Assembly (NCBI RefSeq): GCF_035535915.1
Contig: NZ_DATLPB010000012.1
Coordinates: 988 to 64,987, forward strand
Source of the DNA: Acidocella sp.
GTDB lineage: Bacteria; Pseudomonadota; Alphaproteobacteria; Acetobacterales; Acetobacteraceae
DNA: 64,000 bases
Reading direction: 5' to 3'
The position numbers and the translations under genes were made by a program. Below the pieces are notes generated by a model. It saw only the letters and a program-made list of their open reading frames with translations, was not told where the DNA came from and did not search any database. This document shows, in pieces, positions 15,602 to 61,569 of the stretch; within the stretch, counting starts at the first letter, position 1; each line of letters opens with the position of its first letter.

Positions 15602-15643
15602 GCTGTCATAGCTCAGGGGTAGAGCACTTCATTGGTAATGAAG
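15602..15643 (+). repeat. attL core: 42-bp copy of the 5' half of tRNA-Thr(GGT)
   Basis: GCTGTCATAGCTCAGGGGTAGAGCACTTCATTGGTAATGAAG identical to 58566-58607; identity ends exactly after the anticodon stem. Confidence 0.95.
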
Positions 15644-15701: not shown

Positions 15702-15722
15702 CTGCACGCATGGTGCACGGAT
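15702..15722. repeat. Putative integrase arm-type site (left)
   Basis: CTGCACGCATGGTGCACGGAT identical to 58446-58466; internal TGCACGSA tandem. Confidence 0.7.
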
Positions 15723-16714: not shown

Positions 16715-17122
16715 TCATTTGGCGACCATCTCCCACTGGTCCGCATCAATGTCCGGCTTCTTCCATCCGATCACCAACCCATCGCCGCCGATCTTCATGA
16801 TGATATAGTCGCCGTACCCGTTATCGTTGACGCACAGAATGGAGTTAGGGACATAATATCCCTTCCACTTAGCCAGACCTGCGCCAGAGGCATCAAGCAA
16901 CCAATACCGGCCGTCGTCGCAGACCTTATAGTGAATATCCGCCGTGGTTCCGGGCGGCCAGTCGATAACGCGCCCCGTTTCCAATTCGATGACCGGGCAC
17001 CATGCATCTCTCTTGCGGCGAGGTATGTTGCCATCCTCGTCAACTTCACCGTTTAGAGTGGAGCCCTCCCAGTAGCGCACGCCAGCCTCTACCTCGATAT
17101 AGCGGGCTCTCTCGATGCTCAT
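16715..17122 (-). CDS. Phage hypothetical protein
   Basis: 135-aa ORF, coupled by ATGA overlap to the upstream gene. Confidence 0.75.
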   Translation of the reverse strand: MSIERARYIEVEAGVRYWEGSTLNGEVDEDGNIPRRKRDAWCPVIELETGRVIDWPPGTTADIHYKVCDDGRYWLLDASGAGLAKWKGYYVPNSILCVNDNGYGDYIIMKIGGDGLVIGWKKPDIDADQWEMVAK

Positions 17123-17319
17123 GGTGTGGACTGCCTCTCCTTGATAGCCTCGTTCAGCAGATCGCGTATCTGGACAAGATCATCTCCCGTCACGATCACA
17201 GAAGCATCCTCATTGTAGGCGAAGGTCACGCCGAAGCGGCCTATGCGAGAGACGACGAGAGTTTCGCGCTCTCCGCTCATGTTGCACGGGAAACTGAGTT
17301 TCGTTGATGTTTCGCTCAT
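17119..17319 (-). CDS. Phage hypothetical protein
   Basis: 66 aa, flanked on both sides by the 23-bp junction repeat. Confidence 0.7.
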   Translation of the reverse strand: MSETSTKLSFPCNMSGERETLVVSRIGRFGVTFAYNEDASVIVTGDDLVQIRDLLNEAIKERQSTP

Positions 17320-17618
17320 GGTATGGACTGCCTTTCATCGAGCATGACTATCTTGCAACCTTCCCTCTGCGGTGCGCGGGCGACCCAGCTCTGCTCGAAC
17401 TCGGCGATCTCCTCCGGCGTCAGCCGGCGCGCCATTACGACCGCCATCTGTGGCGGAAGCACCGTACCATATAGCGCTTTCGTATAGGCGGCGATGGCAT
17501 TGGCTATACGCTCTGATTTGGTCGGTTCGCTGTAGCGCTCCAGATCAAAATCGCAATCGAAGGCTTCCTCTGCCAGGCGCAGCGCCTCGGTATGCATTTC
17601 CTCGGGCGTCATGCTCAA
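17316..17618 (-). CDS. Phage hypothetical protein
   Basis: TTG start with GAGG RBS; ends ERQSIP; 4-bp overlaps. Confidence 0.7.
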   Translation of the reverse strand: MSMTPEEMHTEALRLAEEAFDCDFDLERYSEPTKSERIANAIAAYTKALYGTVLPPQMAVVMARRLTPEEIAEFEQSWVARAPQREGCKIVMLDERQSIP

Positions 17619-17887
17619 TTCTGGACCTCATTTGTCACCTGGCGCTCGATGATACGAGCGAAGTAATAGGGCACCTGTTCGATTGCGATCGTCGAGGTAA
17701 CTATGGTTCCACCCCCATCCCGGCCGACCACGGGATCTGCGTCGATTATCTTGGTCGCCTCGACGGCTTCTTGCAGTGAAACGTCGCTCAGGTCAGGCAT
17801 CGTGAAGCAGCCGAGCCCGTTGATAACGAAATAGCCGGCGCACAGGCGCCGATTGATATCTAGGGCACGCTTGCGGGTCATGCTCAT
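17615..17887 (-). CDS. Phage hypothetical protein
   Basis: 90 aa; 4-bp overlaps at both ends. Confidence 0.65.
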   Translation of the reverse strand: MSMTRKRALDINRRLCAGYFVINGLGCFTMPDLSDVSLQEAVEATKIIDADPVVGRDGGGTIVTSTIAIEQVPYYFARIIERQVTNEVQN

Positions 17888-18063
17888 GTGATGTCCTTTG
17901 TGTCAGGGATAATCGCATCAACCCAAGTCACAAAGCGCGCTATGCATTCATCGCGATCTTTGCGCCATTCGTCGGCAGTGAAGCCGGTAAACCATTTCTT
18001 GGTTCCATCCGGGCTTTCGGCCTGGACGGAGATGGATTTTGGGCGCTTGTCGCTTTCACTCAT
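17884..18063 (-). CDS. Phage hypothetical protein (59 aa, not in the ORF track)
   Basis: Manual translation MSESDKRPKSISVQAESPDGTKKWFTG...DTKDIT; ATGA overlaps at both ends. Confidence 0.7.
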   Translation of the reverse strand: MSESDKRPKSISVQAESPDGTKKWFTGFTADEWRKDRDECIARFVTWVDAIIPDTKDIT

Positions 18064-18434
18064 GATACGGACTGCCTCTCATGTTTTTGGGCCTCAAGCC
18101 CGGTCGCGAATAGAAGGCCGACATCCAGCTTCCCGGTTGCTTCGAGCATGCATTGCGCCATGACTTTCATGGACTCGTACACTCGCTCTCCGGGCTGCGG
18201 GACTTTGATTTCTTCCTCTGGTGCCGCCCACCCCATCAACTTGTGCTTAAAGAAGTCGCCCATCCTGGCCGCTACGGAACAGTTGGCCTTATCCTTGCCG
18301 TAGGTTGTCACATGCTCGCCGTGCGGCTCATGAGCTTCGCCAACCCGGCGAGCGATCACTACCACCTGGTCATAGCCGTATTCGTCAGCAATAATCTTCG
18401 CGGCTTTGATCGGTATGCGCTTCATTCGGCTCAA
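18060..18434 (-). CDS. Phage hypothetical protein
   Basis: 124 aa (YGYDQVVVIARR...HVTTYG); ends ERQSVS. Confidence 0.75.
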   Translation of the reverse strand: MSRMKRIPIKAAKIIADEYGYDQVVVIARRVGEAHEPHGEHVTTYGKDKANCSVAARMGDFFKHKLMGWAAPEEEIKVPQPGERVYESMKVMAQCMLEATGKLDVGLLFATGLEAQKHERQSVS

Positions 18435-18784
18435 TTGTTTTCTCCGTCTGTCAGGGCGCGCCGGTCAATCTCCGCGACAAGCGCGGCCTTGGCCAGGCGT
18501 ATGGACACCTCATCAAGTCCTGTGATCTTTGCTGCGCGCTTATAGGCCGCATCATCCAACTCCCTTGGCATCAGCACGCTGTCAGACGCGGCGAGGTAGG
18601 CATCGATGGCGGCGCGGATGACCTTTCGAAGATTAAGGCGACCGTCGATAACGACCTCGGTTAGGTCATCGTCAGGCGTAAGGCTGTCGCCAGTCGGGCC
18701 TGCAATGAAGCAGTCCCCGTCGCGTTCGATCTCGGCAACCGCAGCCCGCGCCGCGCGCTCGATTATGGTCGGGATGCCGCTCAT
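18431..18784 (-). CDS. Phage hypothetical protein
   Basis: MSGIPTIIERAAR...; start lies in junction repeat 4. Confidence 0.7.
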   Translation of the reverse strand: MSGIPTIIERAARAAVAEIERDGDCFIAGPTGDSLTPDDDLTEVVIDGRLNLRKVIRAAIDAYLAASDSVLMPRELDDAAYKRAAKITGLDEVSIRLAKAALVAEIDRRALTDGENN

Positions 18785-18990
18785 GGTGTGGACTGCCTTC
18801 CTTTTTTCATCGCCTGCCCTTCGGCCCAAACCTGCTTGAAGTGATCAAGCAGGCCGGCGCCGGCAAGATAGGTTTCCATATGATCGACATACTCAAGCAC
18901 GGCAGTGATGTCGCGCTTTAGGGATCGGCTAATATCGTTTTCCTCGTCGGTCATGACAGTCTCGCGCAAACCATCTAGAATTTCGCTCAT
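18781..18990 (-). CDS. Phage hypothetical protein
   Basis: 69 aa; ends GRQSTP; coupled to the resolvase-like gene. Confidence 0.7.
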   Translation of the reverse strand: MSEILDGLRETVMTDEENDISRSLKRDITAVLEYVDHMETYLAGAGLLDHFKQVWAEGQAMKKGRQSTP

Positions 18991-19595
18991 GATTTTGCCT
19001 TTCTACCAAAAATAGGTTGATCGCGCGGCCCGAGCTTCCGATAGGCCGTGGACGGGCTGATCCCGATCTTCGCCGCGGCGGCATTGCCGGTCAGCGCCGG
19101 GTCCAGCCAGATCGCCAGCGCGGCCTCCTTGGCCTTCCCCGTGAGCTTCGTAGGCGTGCCGCCCAGGCGGCCGGTTTCAGCCCGCCGGACGCGCGCCTTG
19201 GCCAGCGCAAAGCTGCGGGTCAGTGTCTCGGCCCGGTTGCAGAAATCCACCACAGCCAGCGCCTCAGGGCTCCACGGTATGGCCTGCCCTGTGCTGGCAT
19301 CGAACACCGCGCCCTCGCGCCTGCCGATGGCCTGCAGCACCTCGAAGACCGCACCACGCGAACCGCCCAGGACTGCCGGCGATGCCACGGCAAGCTCATC
19401 GCCCGGTCGCATGGCGCGCAACGCCTCGGCCAGATCGGGCCGAGGTTCGGCGCCAGACTTTCGCCGCTTCTGGGCACGGTCACACCACACGGGGCCTTCG
19501 TCGCTAAAGTCATCGATGCCCGCGCCGCGCAGCGCCTCCTTCTGCTCTTTGAGGCTTGGCAAACCCGGCGCTTCGTTCATGTATCCTAGTCGCAC
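18987..19595 (-). CDS. Serine resolvase-like protein with C-terminal HTH; canonical catalytic residues absent
   Basis: GTG start MRLGYMNEAPGLPSLKEQKEALRGAG; RPDLAEALRAMRPGDELAV; GGTPTKL; C-terminal AAAKIGISPSTAYRKL. Confidence 0.8.
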   Translation of the reverse strand: MRLGYMNEAPGLPSLKEQKEALRGAGIDDFSDEGPVWCDRAQKRRKSGAEPRPDLAEALRAMRPGDELAVASPAVLGGSRGAVFEVLQAIGRREGAVFDASTGQAIPWSPEALAVVDFCNRAETLTRSFALAKARVRRAETGRLGGTPTKLTGKAKEAALAIWLDPALTGNAAAAKIGISPSTAYRKLGPRDQPIFGRKAKS

Positions 19596-19652
19596 TATCT
19601 CGCACCTGTTGTCATGTTGACAGAATGACATAACAGATGATAGATTGCAATC

Positions 19653-19895
19653 ATGATCAAGCTCACCACCCATGCCGAAGAAATGATTGCCGACCGGGGC
19701 ATCGCCCTGGCATGGGTTGTGAGCGCGATCGAGGCCCCGGACTCCCGCGCCGTTGACCCGCGCGACCCGAGCCTGACCCGTTCTTATCGGAAGATTTCTG
19801 AGGCTGATGGGCGTATTCTCCGGGTTGTTCATCGCCCGGATGGTGCCGATATTCTGGTGATCACGGCGTTTTTTGATAGAGGAATGAAGCTATGA
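19653..19895 (+). CDS. DUF4258-like putative toxin (RelE-like)
   Basis: LTTHAEEMIADRGI...LRVV...LVITAFFDR; ATGA overlap with the next gene. Confidence 0.8.
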   Translation: MIKLTTHAEEMIADRGIALAWVVSAIEAPDSRAVDPRDPSLTRSYRKISEADGRILRVVHRPDGADILVITAFFDRGMKL

Positions 19896-20086
19896 TCTCG
19901 ACCAACTACGACCCCGAAGCGGACGCCCTCTATGTGCAGATCGCGCCAAAGGGAACGCCGGTTGCAGAGACCCGCGAGATTGAACCGGGCGTGATCCTGG
20001 ACGTTGACGCTAAGGGCTCCGTCATCGGTATCGAGGTGTTGGGCGTGCGCGCTCGGTCCGCTGGTACGCCGGCTGCCGCTGCCTGA
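19892..20086 (+). CDS. DUF2283-like putative antitoxin
   Basis: YDPEADALYV...GVILDVDAKGSVIGIEVLG. Confidence 0.85.
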   Translation: MISTNYDPEADALYVQIAPKGTPVAETREIEPGVILDVDAKGSVIGIEVLGVRARSAGTPAAAA

Positions 20087-20606: not shown

Positions 20607-20657
20607 GCTACTTTTTGTGAGCAAAAAGTAGCAAAAAACTTTTTAAAACTTTTCTTT
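20607..20657. repeat. Partial host palindromic repeat (copy D) inside the prophage
   Basis: GCTACTTTTTG-TGAG-CAAAAAGTAGC-AAAAAACTTT matches the left module of copies A, B and E. Confidence 0.85.
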
Positions 20658-26636: not shown

Positions 26637-26993
26637 TTAAAGCCGATTGTTGTCCGTGTTCACAGCCGTGTATTGCAGCTCTTCGCTCAATTCCGGGTGC
26701 TGAACCAATAGGGCCGCCGCCAAAGCCCGGTGGCATCCCGAAACGTCGGCTCTGAAAATATAATCCATCGTCACATGAAACCGGCGGCAGAAAGCCACAA
26801 GAATATAGGGGTCGGGCGACCTGTCGCCGGCTTCCCATTTTTGCCACGCCGCCTGATTTAGGCCGAACAACTTCGCCGTCTCAGTTTGGCCTAGATTGGC
26901 GTATTCGCGCACCCAGCGGATGCGGTTTCCGACGCCTTCCATATATGCGCGAGGGGTCTTTCGGGCGGTTTTCGGCATGGGGTTCTGTAACAT
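26637..26993 (-). CDS. CI-like XRE HTH repressor (short, no peptidase domain; alternative start 26978)
   Basis: VGNRIRWVREYANLGQTETAKLFGLNQAAWQKWEAGDRSPD; divergent from cro; flanked by operators. Confidence 0.85.
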   Translation of the reverse strand: MLQNPMPKTARKTPRAYMEGVGNRIRWVREYANLGQTETAKLFGLNQAAWQKWEAGDRSPDPYILVAFCRRFHVTMDYIFRADVSGCHRALAAALLVQHPELSEELQYTAVNTDNNRL

Positions 26994-27013
26994 TACGGCC
27001 TCTGCAACGTCGA

Positions 27014-27055
27014 ACTCCAAAATGGATTGCGAAATAATCCAATCTGGATTATTTG
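27014..27055 (+). promoter_or_regulatory. PR/OR: two 15-bp operators and rightward promoter
   Basis: ACTCCAAAATGGATT (27014), AATCCAATCTGGATT (27036); TTGCGA-N17-TATTTG ending 7 nt before the cro ATG. Confidence 0.75.
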
Positions 27056-27062
27056 GCGTGTC

Positions 27063-27314
27063 ATGGGCCATGCTGAAATCATCAAACGACTCGGTACAGA
27101 AAACGTGAGAAAATGGACGGGCGCCACGGCCGCCAACATCTCGCACTGGCGCGCGCGGGGTATTCCTTCGCGGTTTTGGGCCATAATTGTCGAAAAATCG
27201 GCGATGCTCGGCGTCGATCTGGCGGTATCCGCGTCCGATCTTCAGGACGGTTACGCTGGTAAGCGCAAACTTCCCGGAGCCGAGTCGGATGCGATTCGCC
27301 GACGCGCAGCATGA
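27063..27314 (+). CDS. Cro-like HTH regulator
   Basis: IIKRLG...ANISHWRARGIPSRFWAII; divergent from cI. Confidence 0.75.
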   Translation: MGHAEIIKRLGTENVRKWTGATAANISHWRARGIPSRFWAIIVEKSAMLGVDLAVSASDLQDGYAGKRKLPGAESDAIRRRAA

Positions 27315-27420
27315 GCAACCTTTCGATGGAATCAACCGTTCGCATGGAGATGCTTGTCCTCCTTTGCGCCGCAACAGTCACCCGGATTTAGTCCGGAGGT
27401 CAAACGATTTGGAGGATTAT

Positions 27421-27882
27421 ATGACGGAGCGACAGTTCGCACCTGCCGACTACAATGCCATGAAAACGGCGATGAAGCTGGTGATCGCCGATCTCGGCGG
27501 GATCGATGCGGCGGCGAGCTGCACGCGTGTCGGGCGTAGTCAAATCGCTGATTACGGTGTGTCCGGAAAAGACACATTCGCTCCGGCTGACGTGGTCATG
27601 GACCTCGAGCGAGTGGGCGGCACGCCGCATGTCACTGCGGCACTGGCGCGCGCTCAAGGCTATATGCTTGTCCCGATAGACATGCCGCGTGAGCGCGGGG
27701 TGCTGGCATCGCTGATGGCCGAGATCGGCCGGGATGTCGGCGAGTTGTTCGCCACAGCCGCCACAGCGCTGGCCCATGACAAGCTGACCGATCAGGAACG
27801 GCAGGATCTGCTGCGTGAGCTGGACACTTTGCGCCGCGTCAGCAGCGAGGCGTTCGCATTTCTGATGTGTGTTCCGGCGTAG
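27421..27882 (+). CDS. CII-like phage regulatory protein
   Basis: GGAGG RBS; GGIDAAA...VGRSQIADY...VVMDLERVGG; position after cro. Confidence 0.7.
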   Translation: MTERQFAPADYNAMKTAMKLVIADLGGIDAAASCTRVGRSQIADYGVSGKDTFAPADVVMDLERVGGTPHVTAALARAQGYMLVPIDMPRERGVLASLMAEIGRDVGELFATAATALAHDKLTDQERQDLLRELDTLRRVSSEAFAFLMCVPA

Positions 27883-58565: not shown

Positions 58566-58640
58566 GCTGTCATAGCTCAGGGGTAGAGCACTTCATTGGT
58601 AATGAAGAGGTCCTGGGTTCAATTCCCAGTGACAGCACCA
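58566..58640 (+). tRNA. tRNA-Thr(GGT), intact; 58566-58607 is the attR core
   Basis: Cloverleaf: acceptor GCTGTCA/TGACAGC, anticodon loop TTGGTAA, TTCAATT T-loop, CCA end. Confidence 0.97.
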
Positions 58641-61374: not shown

Positions 61375-61569
61375 AAGAAAGCGCTACTTTTTGTGAACAA
61401 AAAGTAGCAAAAAAACTTTGTTATGCTGGGCCGTGGGCGTTGTCGCTGACACAGCCCATGCCCTCCGGGGCTATTCCAACGGTGCTGCGCACCGCCGGAA
61501 CCTTCAGCCCCTCCGCCCGGCGTAACAAAAGTTTTTGCGCCGCTTTTTTCAAAAAGCGGCCGCTTTCTT
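61375..61569. repeat. Composite palindromic intergenic repeat, copy E (expanded centre)
   Basis: Both terminal hairpins and AAGAAAG/CTTTCTT ends; centre shares TGGGCGTTGTCGC.GACACAGCCCATG with copy B; abuts the patatin stop. Confidence 0.9.

Follow-up and report, generated by a model that had tools for sequence, protein, structure and literature searches.

A resolvase-like gene at the head of a small-gene array

The window analysed here is a 64,000-nucleotide stretch of Acidocella sp. DNA (contig NZ_DATLPB010000012.1), and all coordinates below are positions within it unless a related locus is named. On its minus strand, at 18987–19595, lies a gene for a protein related to the serine resolvases, here called the pseudo-resolvase. 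The gene starts with GTG (19595), ends with TGA (18989–18987) and has an uninterrupted frame of 202 codons, so the intact open reading frame noted in a first-pass annotation of the sequence is real. The 202-aa product comprises a resolvase-like N-terminal domain (aa 1–109), an E-helix (110–140), an arm (GRLGGTPTKL), a helix–turn–helix (HTH; 154–188) and a conserved basic tail (PIFGRKAKS). On one side, a 57-bp control region with two overlapping face-to-face predicted promoters (19596–19652) separates the gene from a divergent, toxin–antitoxin-like DUF4258/DUF2283 pair (19653–20086, plus strand). On the other, eight small orphan genes (16715–18990, minus strand), none with a Pfam match, are chained by overlapping stop and start codons. 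The first ATG of this array (18990) overlaps the TGA of the pseudo-resolvase gene, and this ATGA junction, evident from the coordinates and found in relatives too, confirms the earlier proposal that the gene is translationally coupled to the array.

The related loci used for comparison are phage-sized metagenome contigs and IMG/VR entries (L001-L005, L027-L029, L030-L037, L048-L054), together with one prophage in a 589-kb scaffold (L056/57). The N-terminus of relatives (MRLGYMRE...) coincides with the GTG start of the window gene, and a Shine–Dalgarno sequence, AGGTG (19607–19603), lies 7 nt ahead of that codon. Two alternative starts were considered and rejected, as homologues begin at the GTG position: the in-frame ATG at 19631, and the ATG at 19832, which gives a 281-aa frame that also runs into the divergent DUF4258 gene. 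The in-frame upstream extension, chosen by some gene callers, contains a stop in L048 and lacks a start in L003. Its apparent conservation is best read as DNA-level conservation of promoter and operator, not of coding sequence.

Every locus examined has the pseudo-resolvase gene first after a divergent gap, with a 4-bp overlap with the next small gene. The same first-gene layout is seen for a distant relative that is still PF00239-positive (P0037/L058). What lies on either side is not constant. BLASTP between the arrays of the window, L001, L003, L004 and L027 gave no match at E ≤ 1e-3; the arrays are unrelated between loci, and the idea of a conserved downstream partner gene was rejected. The divergent genes also vary (RyR, DUF5131, toxin–antitoxin-like genes and others), and the DUF4258/DUF2283 pair is found at that position only in the window and L028. 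The family is one of uncultured phages, and in the loci examined its gene always heads a variable block of small genes.

Fold, active site and family

An AlphaFold2 (AF2) model built from a 36-sequence alignment (mean predicted local distance difference test score 84.4) shows the order β1-αA-β2-αB-β3..., followed by a long E-helix at 110–140 and a three-helix HTH at 154–188. When the PDB was searched with this model using Foldseek, each of the best 39 matches was a serine recombinase, with γδ resolvase bound to DNA at the top (1gdt, E = 1.8e-8), and the fold matches among the viral predicted structures of BFVD were likewise serine recombinases. The model and the Foldseek matches agree on the resolvase-like structure that had been proposed from the letters. 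Profile–profile alignment with hhalign of the family against five canonical resolvases and invertases, taken from fetched loci, gave a probability of 98.9% (E = 1.9e-17) and extended from residue 1 to the HTH. The Pfam and NCBIfam collections are blind to the protein, however: scans of both the 202-aa and the 281-aa frames found no family at E ≤ 1. Identity of the window protein to canonical enzymes is ∼18–29%. Searching PDB sequences with phmmer found Gin invertase (4m6f, E = 0.0055, aa 38–187), and PHROG_125 (‘DNA invertase’) covers aa 134–188 only. The protein is predicted to have the complete small serine-recombinase fold of the resolvase/invertase type, with a catalytic-type domain, an E-helix and a C-terminal HTH.

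To locate the active site, we used the hhalign pairing. In γδ numbering, it places N7 at R8, A9 at S10, A74 at D67, V75 at R68 and G78 at R71, and HMMER against Gin also pairs SPAVLGGS with KLDRLGRS. Both reproduce the by-eye alignment of the first-pass annotation and the five replacements read from it. An ungapped count from the GG motif indicates that R119, E124 and R125 of the E-helix are replaced as well. The broader statement that every canonical catalytic residue has been replaced goes too far, however. Y5 (=Y6) and Q18 (=Q19) are retained, and D39, at the end of predicted β2, is probably the counterpart of D36; sequence aligners disagree in this region because of a 10-residue basic insertion. 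In Tn3 resolvase, mutation of Y6, R8, S10, D36, R68 or R71 nearly abolishes cleavage, and none of these mutants is strongly impaired in binding to site I (Olorunniji and Stark, PMC2794168). As the window protein lacks four of these six residues, catalysis is not expected, while DNA binding is still plausible.

We then asked how widely these replacements are shared. A search of 5.8 billion proteins returned 35 full-length relatives with identities of 48–95%. All lack a Pfam domain and nearly all are labelled ‘hypothetical’; the spread of identities indicates homologues, not assembly copies of one sequence. In this tight family (n = 36, the window copy included), the R71 position is G in every member, the R68 position V or I in every member, and the D67 position A, E or S in every member. 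At the S10 position, A is found in 29, M in 4 and S in 2 members. The full catalytic pentad occurs in 0/36, so it is retained by none of the close homologues. R8 is the exception to this pattern. It is lost in the window copy, as had been noted, but not family-wide: its equivalent is conserved in 33/36, and Asn is found only in the window copy and its 95% relative (P0002/L028).

Could the protein nevertheless be a recombinase or nuclease, working through a non-canonical nucleophile or active site? Several features would fit: the retained Y5, Q18 and probably D39, an R7 kept in most of the family, a Ser at the S10 position in two members, and Ser14 in the loop of the window copy. However, Ser14 is not conserved (its position varies among S, T, P, A, G and D in the alignment), and the active-site loop of the family contains no other conserved Ser or Thr. 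R68, R71 and D67 are absent from all 36 members, A or M takes the place of S10 in 33/36, and the candidate site described below is single in the 64-kb window. Moreover, one mutation at R8, S10, R68 or R71 suffices to abolish catalysis by Tn3 resolvase (PMC2794168). We regard residual catalysis as very improbable.

Selection was gauged from codon alignments of the loci (Nei–Gojobori). The ratio of nonsynonymous to synonymous rates (dN/dS) is 0.13–0.21 for the whole gene and 0.11–0.19 for the N-terminal domain; between the window and its 95% relative in L028 it is 0.16. Conservation is strongest in the columns of the DNA-binding parts, namely the arm, the HTH and the C-terminal portion of the E-helix, and the invariant columns are R127, K133, A134, R135, G142, G146, W163, T169, A173, A174, G178, S180, Y185 and R186. 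Only one broken copy was seen, a truncated or frameshifted relative 80% identical to the window protein, with a frame interrupted after 105 codons (L031:1137-).

A decaying, functionless resolvase relic would account for the loss of the catalytic residues, the lack of a Pfam or NCBIfam match and the truncation of L031 at 105 codons. It would not account for a frame intact over 202 codons, for dN/dS values of 0.13–0.21, or for full-length relatives down to 48% identity with common motifs, length, promoter and position; the selection analysis refutes this explanation, the least probable of those considered. The dead site is common to the family and dN/dS is low, which argues against decay. These sequence comparisons indicate that the pseudo-resolvase is a selected non-catalytic protein and not a pseudogene. 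The first-pass annotation had favoured targeted loss of catalysis with retention of the scaffold over random decay, and the shared dead site (36/36) and the constraint on the gene, N-terminal domain included, bear this out.

The tight family is embedded in a larger group. Searching 1.84 billion cluster representatives (clusters at 50% identity) exhaustively with a profile gave 659 matches at E ≤ 1e-3 and 184 at E ≤ 1e-10. Of 128 among the best representatives, 104 retain the R8 equivalent, 42 retain S10, 46 R68 and 11 R71; only two have all five catalytic residues. In a maximum-likelihood tree, the tight family forms one clade (SH-aLRT 100) nested inside this degenerate radiation, which is split from the canonical resolvases used as outgroup with a support of 99. 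PF00239 (‘Resolvase’) is recognised in 48 of 60 wider-clade representatives, and annotation would therefore call such proteins recombinases.

With tblastn, 50,697 deposited phage genomes gave no match to the pseudo-resolvase; 185,579 species-representative genomes yielded only distant canonical resolvases (≤35% identity); and the gene was in none of 60 relatives of the host that were checked. The literature searched describes neither the family nor a phage-regulator role for small serine recombinases that are naturally inactive.

The control region and the role of the protein

The predicted promoter of the pseudo-resolvase gene (19622–19650, minus strand) consists of a −35 hexamer, TTGCAA (19650–19645), a 17-nt spacer and a −10-like hexamer, CATTCT (19627–19622). 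In most loci examined, TTG[CT]AA-N17 and a −10-like hexamer are found at a fixed distance from the start codon, and this layout is kept across loci though the proteins are only 55–60% identical. An opposing promoter-like site on the plus strand (TTGACA-18-TAGATT, 19617–19646) reads into the DUF4258/DUF2283 pair.

Overlying both promoters is a candidate operator (19606–19636), CTGTT-N21-AACAG, arranged around an inner repeat TGTCAT-N9-ATGACA (19610–19630). The left arm of this palindrome falls within the promoter spacer and the right arm over the Shine–Dalgarno sequence, and the centre coincides with the −35 (TTGACA) of the opposing promoter. CTGTT-N21-AACAG occurs once in the 64 kb, with 0.14 matches expected. 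Inverted repeats of 31–37 bp overall are found at −44 to −10 in 8 of 13 related loci. In L028, L027, L031 and L048, the arms are of the CCTGTT type, 6–8 bp long, with a 21-nt spacer. L001 (CCTGTTAT), L034 (CATCTAT) and the distant L058 (GTTCTTT) have 7–8-bp arms with a 17-nt spacer and differing arm sequences. Upstream of P0037, at L058:3148–3178, the palindrome reaches 15-bp arms (TTTCTCACGTTCTTT-N17-AAAGAACATGAGAAA) and 47 bp in all. Such spacing is far wider than that of a Cro/CI operator. The subsites of res measure 25–34 bp, and the span of the palindromes in the window and its relatives is comparable to the coverage of a resolvase dimer.

An RNA hairpin was considered as the cause of the palindrome. 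Folding against shuffled sequences gave z values of −0.9 for the window, −0.1 for L001, −1.7 for L034 and −2.25 for L058; the window and L001 are not clearly better than shuffles and L034 and L058 somewhat so. These data support a hairpin weakly at best, and this candidate was set aside.

Given that the gene is kept intact by selection and stands first in its operon, a local DNA-binding gene regulator is the most likely function. More specifically, we hold it moderately likely that the protein is a pseudo-recombinase that lost cleavage long ago and has been selected as a sequence-specific DNA-binding, TnpR-like local autoregulator of its operon and of the divergent promoter. A dimer would form through the E-helix, in resolvase fashion, and its arm and HTH domains would bind the ∼31-bp palindrome (19606–19636). 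The bound site would cover the spacer and −10 of the TTGCAA-N17-CATTCT promoter, the ribosome site, and the TTGACA −35 of the promoter facing it. In this way, the protein would autoregulate, and most likely repress, the operon it heads, a set of accessory, fast-swapping small phage genes between int and attL, and the divergent DUF4258/DUF2283 pair would be regulated too. This would amount to the repressor half of Tn3/γδ TnpR at res, minus the recombinase half. In this scheme, we infer that the protein dimerises and binds DNA, which sequence is its operator, and whether it represses or activates.

Parts of this scheme have precedents among active enzymes. TnpR represses promoters inside res (PMC7157771), and Sin bound over a promoter represses that promoter, its dimers using direct or inverted repeats (PMC2428073). 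The pseudo-resolvase resembles TnpR of Tn3/γδ in its fold and in the succession of its domains (catalytic-type domain, E-helix, arm, HTH), in a short divergent control region with promoters overlapping a wide palindromic site (a candidate in this case), in the 31–33-bp span of that candidate, which is within the range of res subsites, and in a toxin–antitoxin-like pair beyond the control region, where many Tn3-family transposons also have one (PMC7157771). It differs in lacking S10, R68, R71 and D67 (and, in the window copy, R8), and hence cannot resolve; in having one candidate site in 57 bp rather than a three-site, 114-bp res; and in being invisible to PF00239. Its gene is also without a transposase; it resides in phages with a tyrosine integrase and stands first in a small orphan-gene operon.

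Sin at regulatory site II (PDB 2r0q; PMC2428073), a structure among the top Foldseek matches, is likewise a serine-recombinase dimer on widely spaced half-sites, binding without cutting. However, Sin has full activity at site I, its non-catalytic role being site-dependent, whereas the window protein would be permanently inactive. The Gin and Hin invertases (PDB 4m6f, 3uj3) provide the best sequence match among solved structures and share the arm GRxGG(R/T)P and the recognition helix STxYR(K/H)L. Unlike the pseudo-resolvase, they are active, require an enhancer in addition to a pair of inverted sites, and flank an invertible segment. The 64-kb window shows neither a second site nor such a segment for the pseudo-resolvase. 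Each candidate motif occurs there once, with no second recombination site, and the synapsing role suggested in the first-pass annotation, which would call for several sites, finds no support.

Several observations weigh against the autoregulator scheme. The outer arms of the window palindrome are perfect over 5 bp only, and the probability of finding any such repeat in 70 nt is about one half (p ∼0.5). A palindrome is not evident in 5 of 13 loci (L003, L004, L029, L032 and L033). The recognition helix SPSTAYRKL is invariant across the family although the palindrome arms differ, which is unexpected if the HTH reads those arms. The conserved upstream TTGCAA and TGTCAA may be explained as two strong promoters, or the −35 hexamers of paired promoters, instead of an operator; likewise, TCTGTCAA or TTGCAATCT as bases read by the HTH are not separable from the −35 hexamers of back-to-back or face-to-face promoters. 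Finally, the N-terminal loop REAPGLP is conserved beyond what a dimer scaffold needs, hinting at an additional function.

This last point bears on a related possibility, in which the protein binds DNA non-catalytically and is not a repressor. It could be an activator or anti-terminator of the array, an architectural protein near int and att, or a regulator in which the degenerate pocket (R7-E8-A9-P10-G11-L12-P13, D39, D66, G77-G78-S79, Q88) senses a ligand or partner and gates DNA binding. The ex-active-site loop and the GGS loop are strongly conserved despite lost catalysis, the TTGCAA −35 adjoins or overlaps conserved motifs in a layout that activators also use, and the gene is near int and att in both the window and L057. 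On the other hand, a ligand or partner is not identifiable, the gene is not consistently beside the integrase across loci, and a palindrome over the −10 and the ribosome site fits repression better. We consider a non-repressor role possible, if rather unlikely.

The first-pass annotation had also raised the idea of a dominant-negative recombinase inhibitor. As such, the protein would be a regulatory subunit that joins an active small serine recombinase of phage or host in mixed dimers or tetramers and blocks or steers the reaction of that enzyme. The E-helix and catalytic-domain scaffold, which hold the dimer and tetramer interfaces, are kept. In addition, L001/L002 has a canonical PF00239 resolvase with all catalytic residues in the same array, 2 kb downstream (L001:12019–12624), and the host genome has five resolvase matches on other contigs. 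However, L001/L002 is the only locus with a canonical resolvase nearby. The contig of the window has no PF00239 gene, and in L003, L004, L029 and L056/57 the stretch within 10 kb of the gene contains no active serine recombinase. Moreover, an identity of ∼18–29% to canonical enzymes makes mixed oligomers unlikely. These data argue against the idea, to which we assign a low probability.

Serine recombinases are textbook enzymes and genome-engineering tools, and annotation names anything of their fold ‘resolvase’ or ‘recombinase’. In this phage-borne family, and apparently in the larger surrounding clade too, the fold, the oligomerisation helix and the DNA-reading parts are under purifying selection and the chemistry has been discarded. 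If the protein is indeed a regulator, it would represent a natural separation of the repressor and recombinase jobs of TnpR and a conserved control module before the fast-evolving accessory arrays of soil phages, and would be a warning that many proteins annotated as ‘resolvases’ on mobile elements are unable to recombine DNA. Ready-made DNA-binding scaffolds that are catalytically silent and have widely spaced half-sites could also be drawn from the family.

Modular relatives, junctions and the prophage

Parts of the gene appear to travel separately. On other phage contigs (L040:1197–1925, the L042:4451–5113 region and L055, also P0040 and P0041), T5orf172/MUG113 proteins have C-terminal 40 residues that are 78–90% identical to the HTH and tail of the window protein. 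Like the pseudo-resolvase, they have a CTTGCAATCT promoter and an ATGA junction into small-gene arrays starting ‘MS’. Unlike it, they begin with a GIY-YIG-like T5orf172 domain, followed by a resolvase-like remnant; the resemblance lies in the middle of these proteins (GYLTPF...IKALRPGDVLLV). In L042, an extra small ribbon–helix–helix-like gene lies ahead of the T5orf172-HTH gene. Because the HTH and tail, the promoter and the junction are common to two types of N-terminus, the promoter-HTH-junction unit behaves as a portable head of variable arrays. The codons of the tail (...FGRKAKS*) also provide the ribosome site (GAAAGGCAAAATCATGA) for the gene that follows. Between the window and L028, dS is 0.06 in the N-terminal domain and E-helix and 0.69 in the HTH part, a contrast that points to a mosaic gene with a recombination breakpoint inside it.

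One could go further and place the window protein at the tip of a large, unrecognised, phage-borne radiation of pseudo-recombinases, comprising at least 659 clusters, most of them auto-annotated ‘resolvase’. Its members would be ‘head’ regulators with a portable promoter-operator-HTH module before hypervariable small-gene arrays, and the ex-active-site pocket (R-E-A-P-G-L-P, D39, D66, GGS) would serve as a sensor of a ligand, of DNA-backbone geometry or of a partner, timing array expression. We offer this as a speculation, and a doubtful one.

Within the array, all eight window genes start with Met-Ser at an ATGA(GC) overlap, as does the first array gene in four other loci. Positions 17117 and 18779 carry a junction repeat, GCTCATGGTGTGGACTGCCT. 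For the 18431–18829 reading frame, the TTG start given in the annotation is probably wrong, given that ATG 18785 follows the ribosome site of the junction.

The pseudo-resolvase gene sits in an accessory stretch between int and attL of a prophage of ∼43 kb. The prophage is bounded by att repeats: the left one (15602–15643, plus strand) is a 42-bp copy of the 5′ part of tRNA-Thr, and the right copy (58566–58607) lies inside the intact tRNA-Thr gene (58566–58640). The repeat corresponds to the 5′, not the 3′, 42 nt of the tRNA. A second, 21-bp direct repeat, CTGCACGCATGGTGCACGGAT, is located ∼100 bp inward of both prophage ends, at 15702 and 58446, and may serve the integrase as an arm site. The recombinase of the prophage is a tyrosine integrase (PF00589; 20710–21843, minus strand) with an Xis-like HTH gene alongside; the pseudo-resolvase is therefore not the integrase. 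It was also rejected as an immunity repressor of the CI type. A separate pair, a CI-like repressor gene (26640–27374, minus strand) facing a CII-like gene (27187–27879, plus strand), lies by the replication genes at 26.6–27.9 kb, and the pseudo-resolvase gene is beyond int. Other prophage genes encode methyltransferases, ParB, DUF2303, DnaB, terminase and portal.

L056 and L057 lie 61 kb apart on one 588,767-bp scaffold and are two occurrences of the homologue with its neighbours, their gene maps being identical. Chromosomal genes adjoin one copy, and the other comes after a phage integrase; the duplication is either a tandem double lysogen or an assembly duplication. In the window, a hairpin-like repeat (GCTACTTTTTGTGA / CAAAAAGTAGCAAAAAA) is found at 20607–20640, 3′ of int, and again outside the prophage at 61383–61414.

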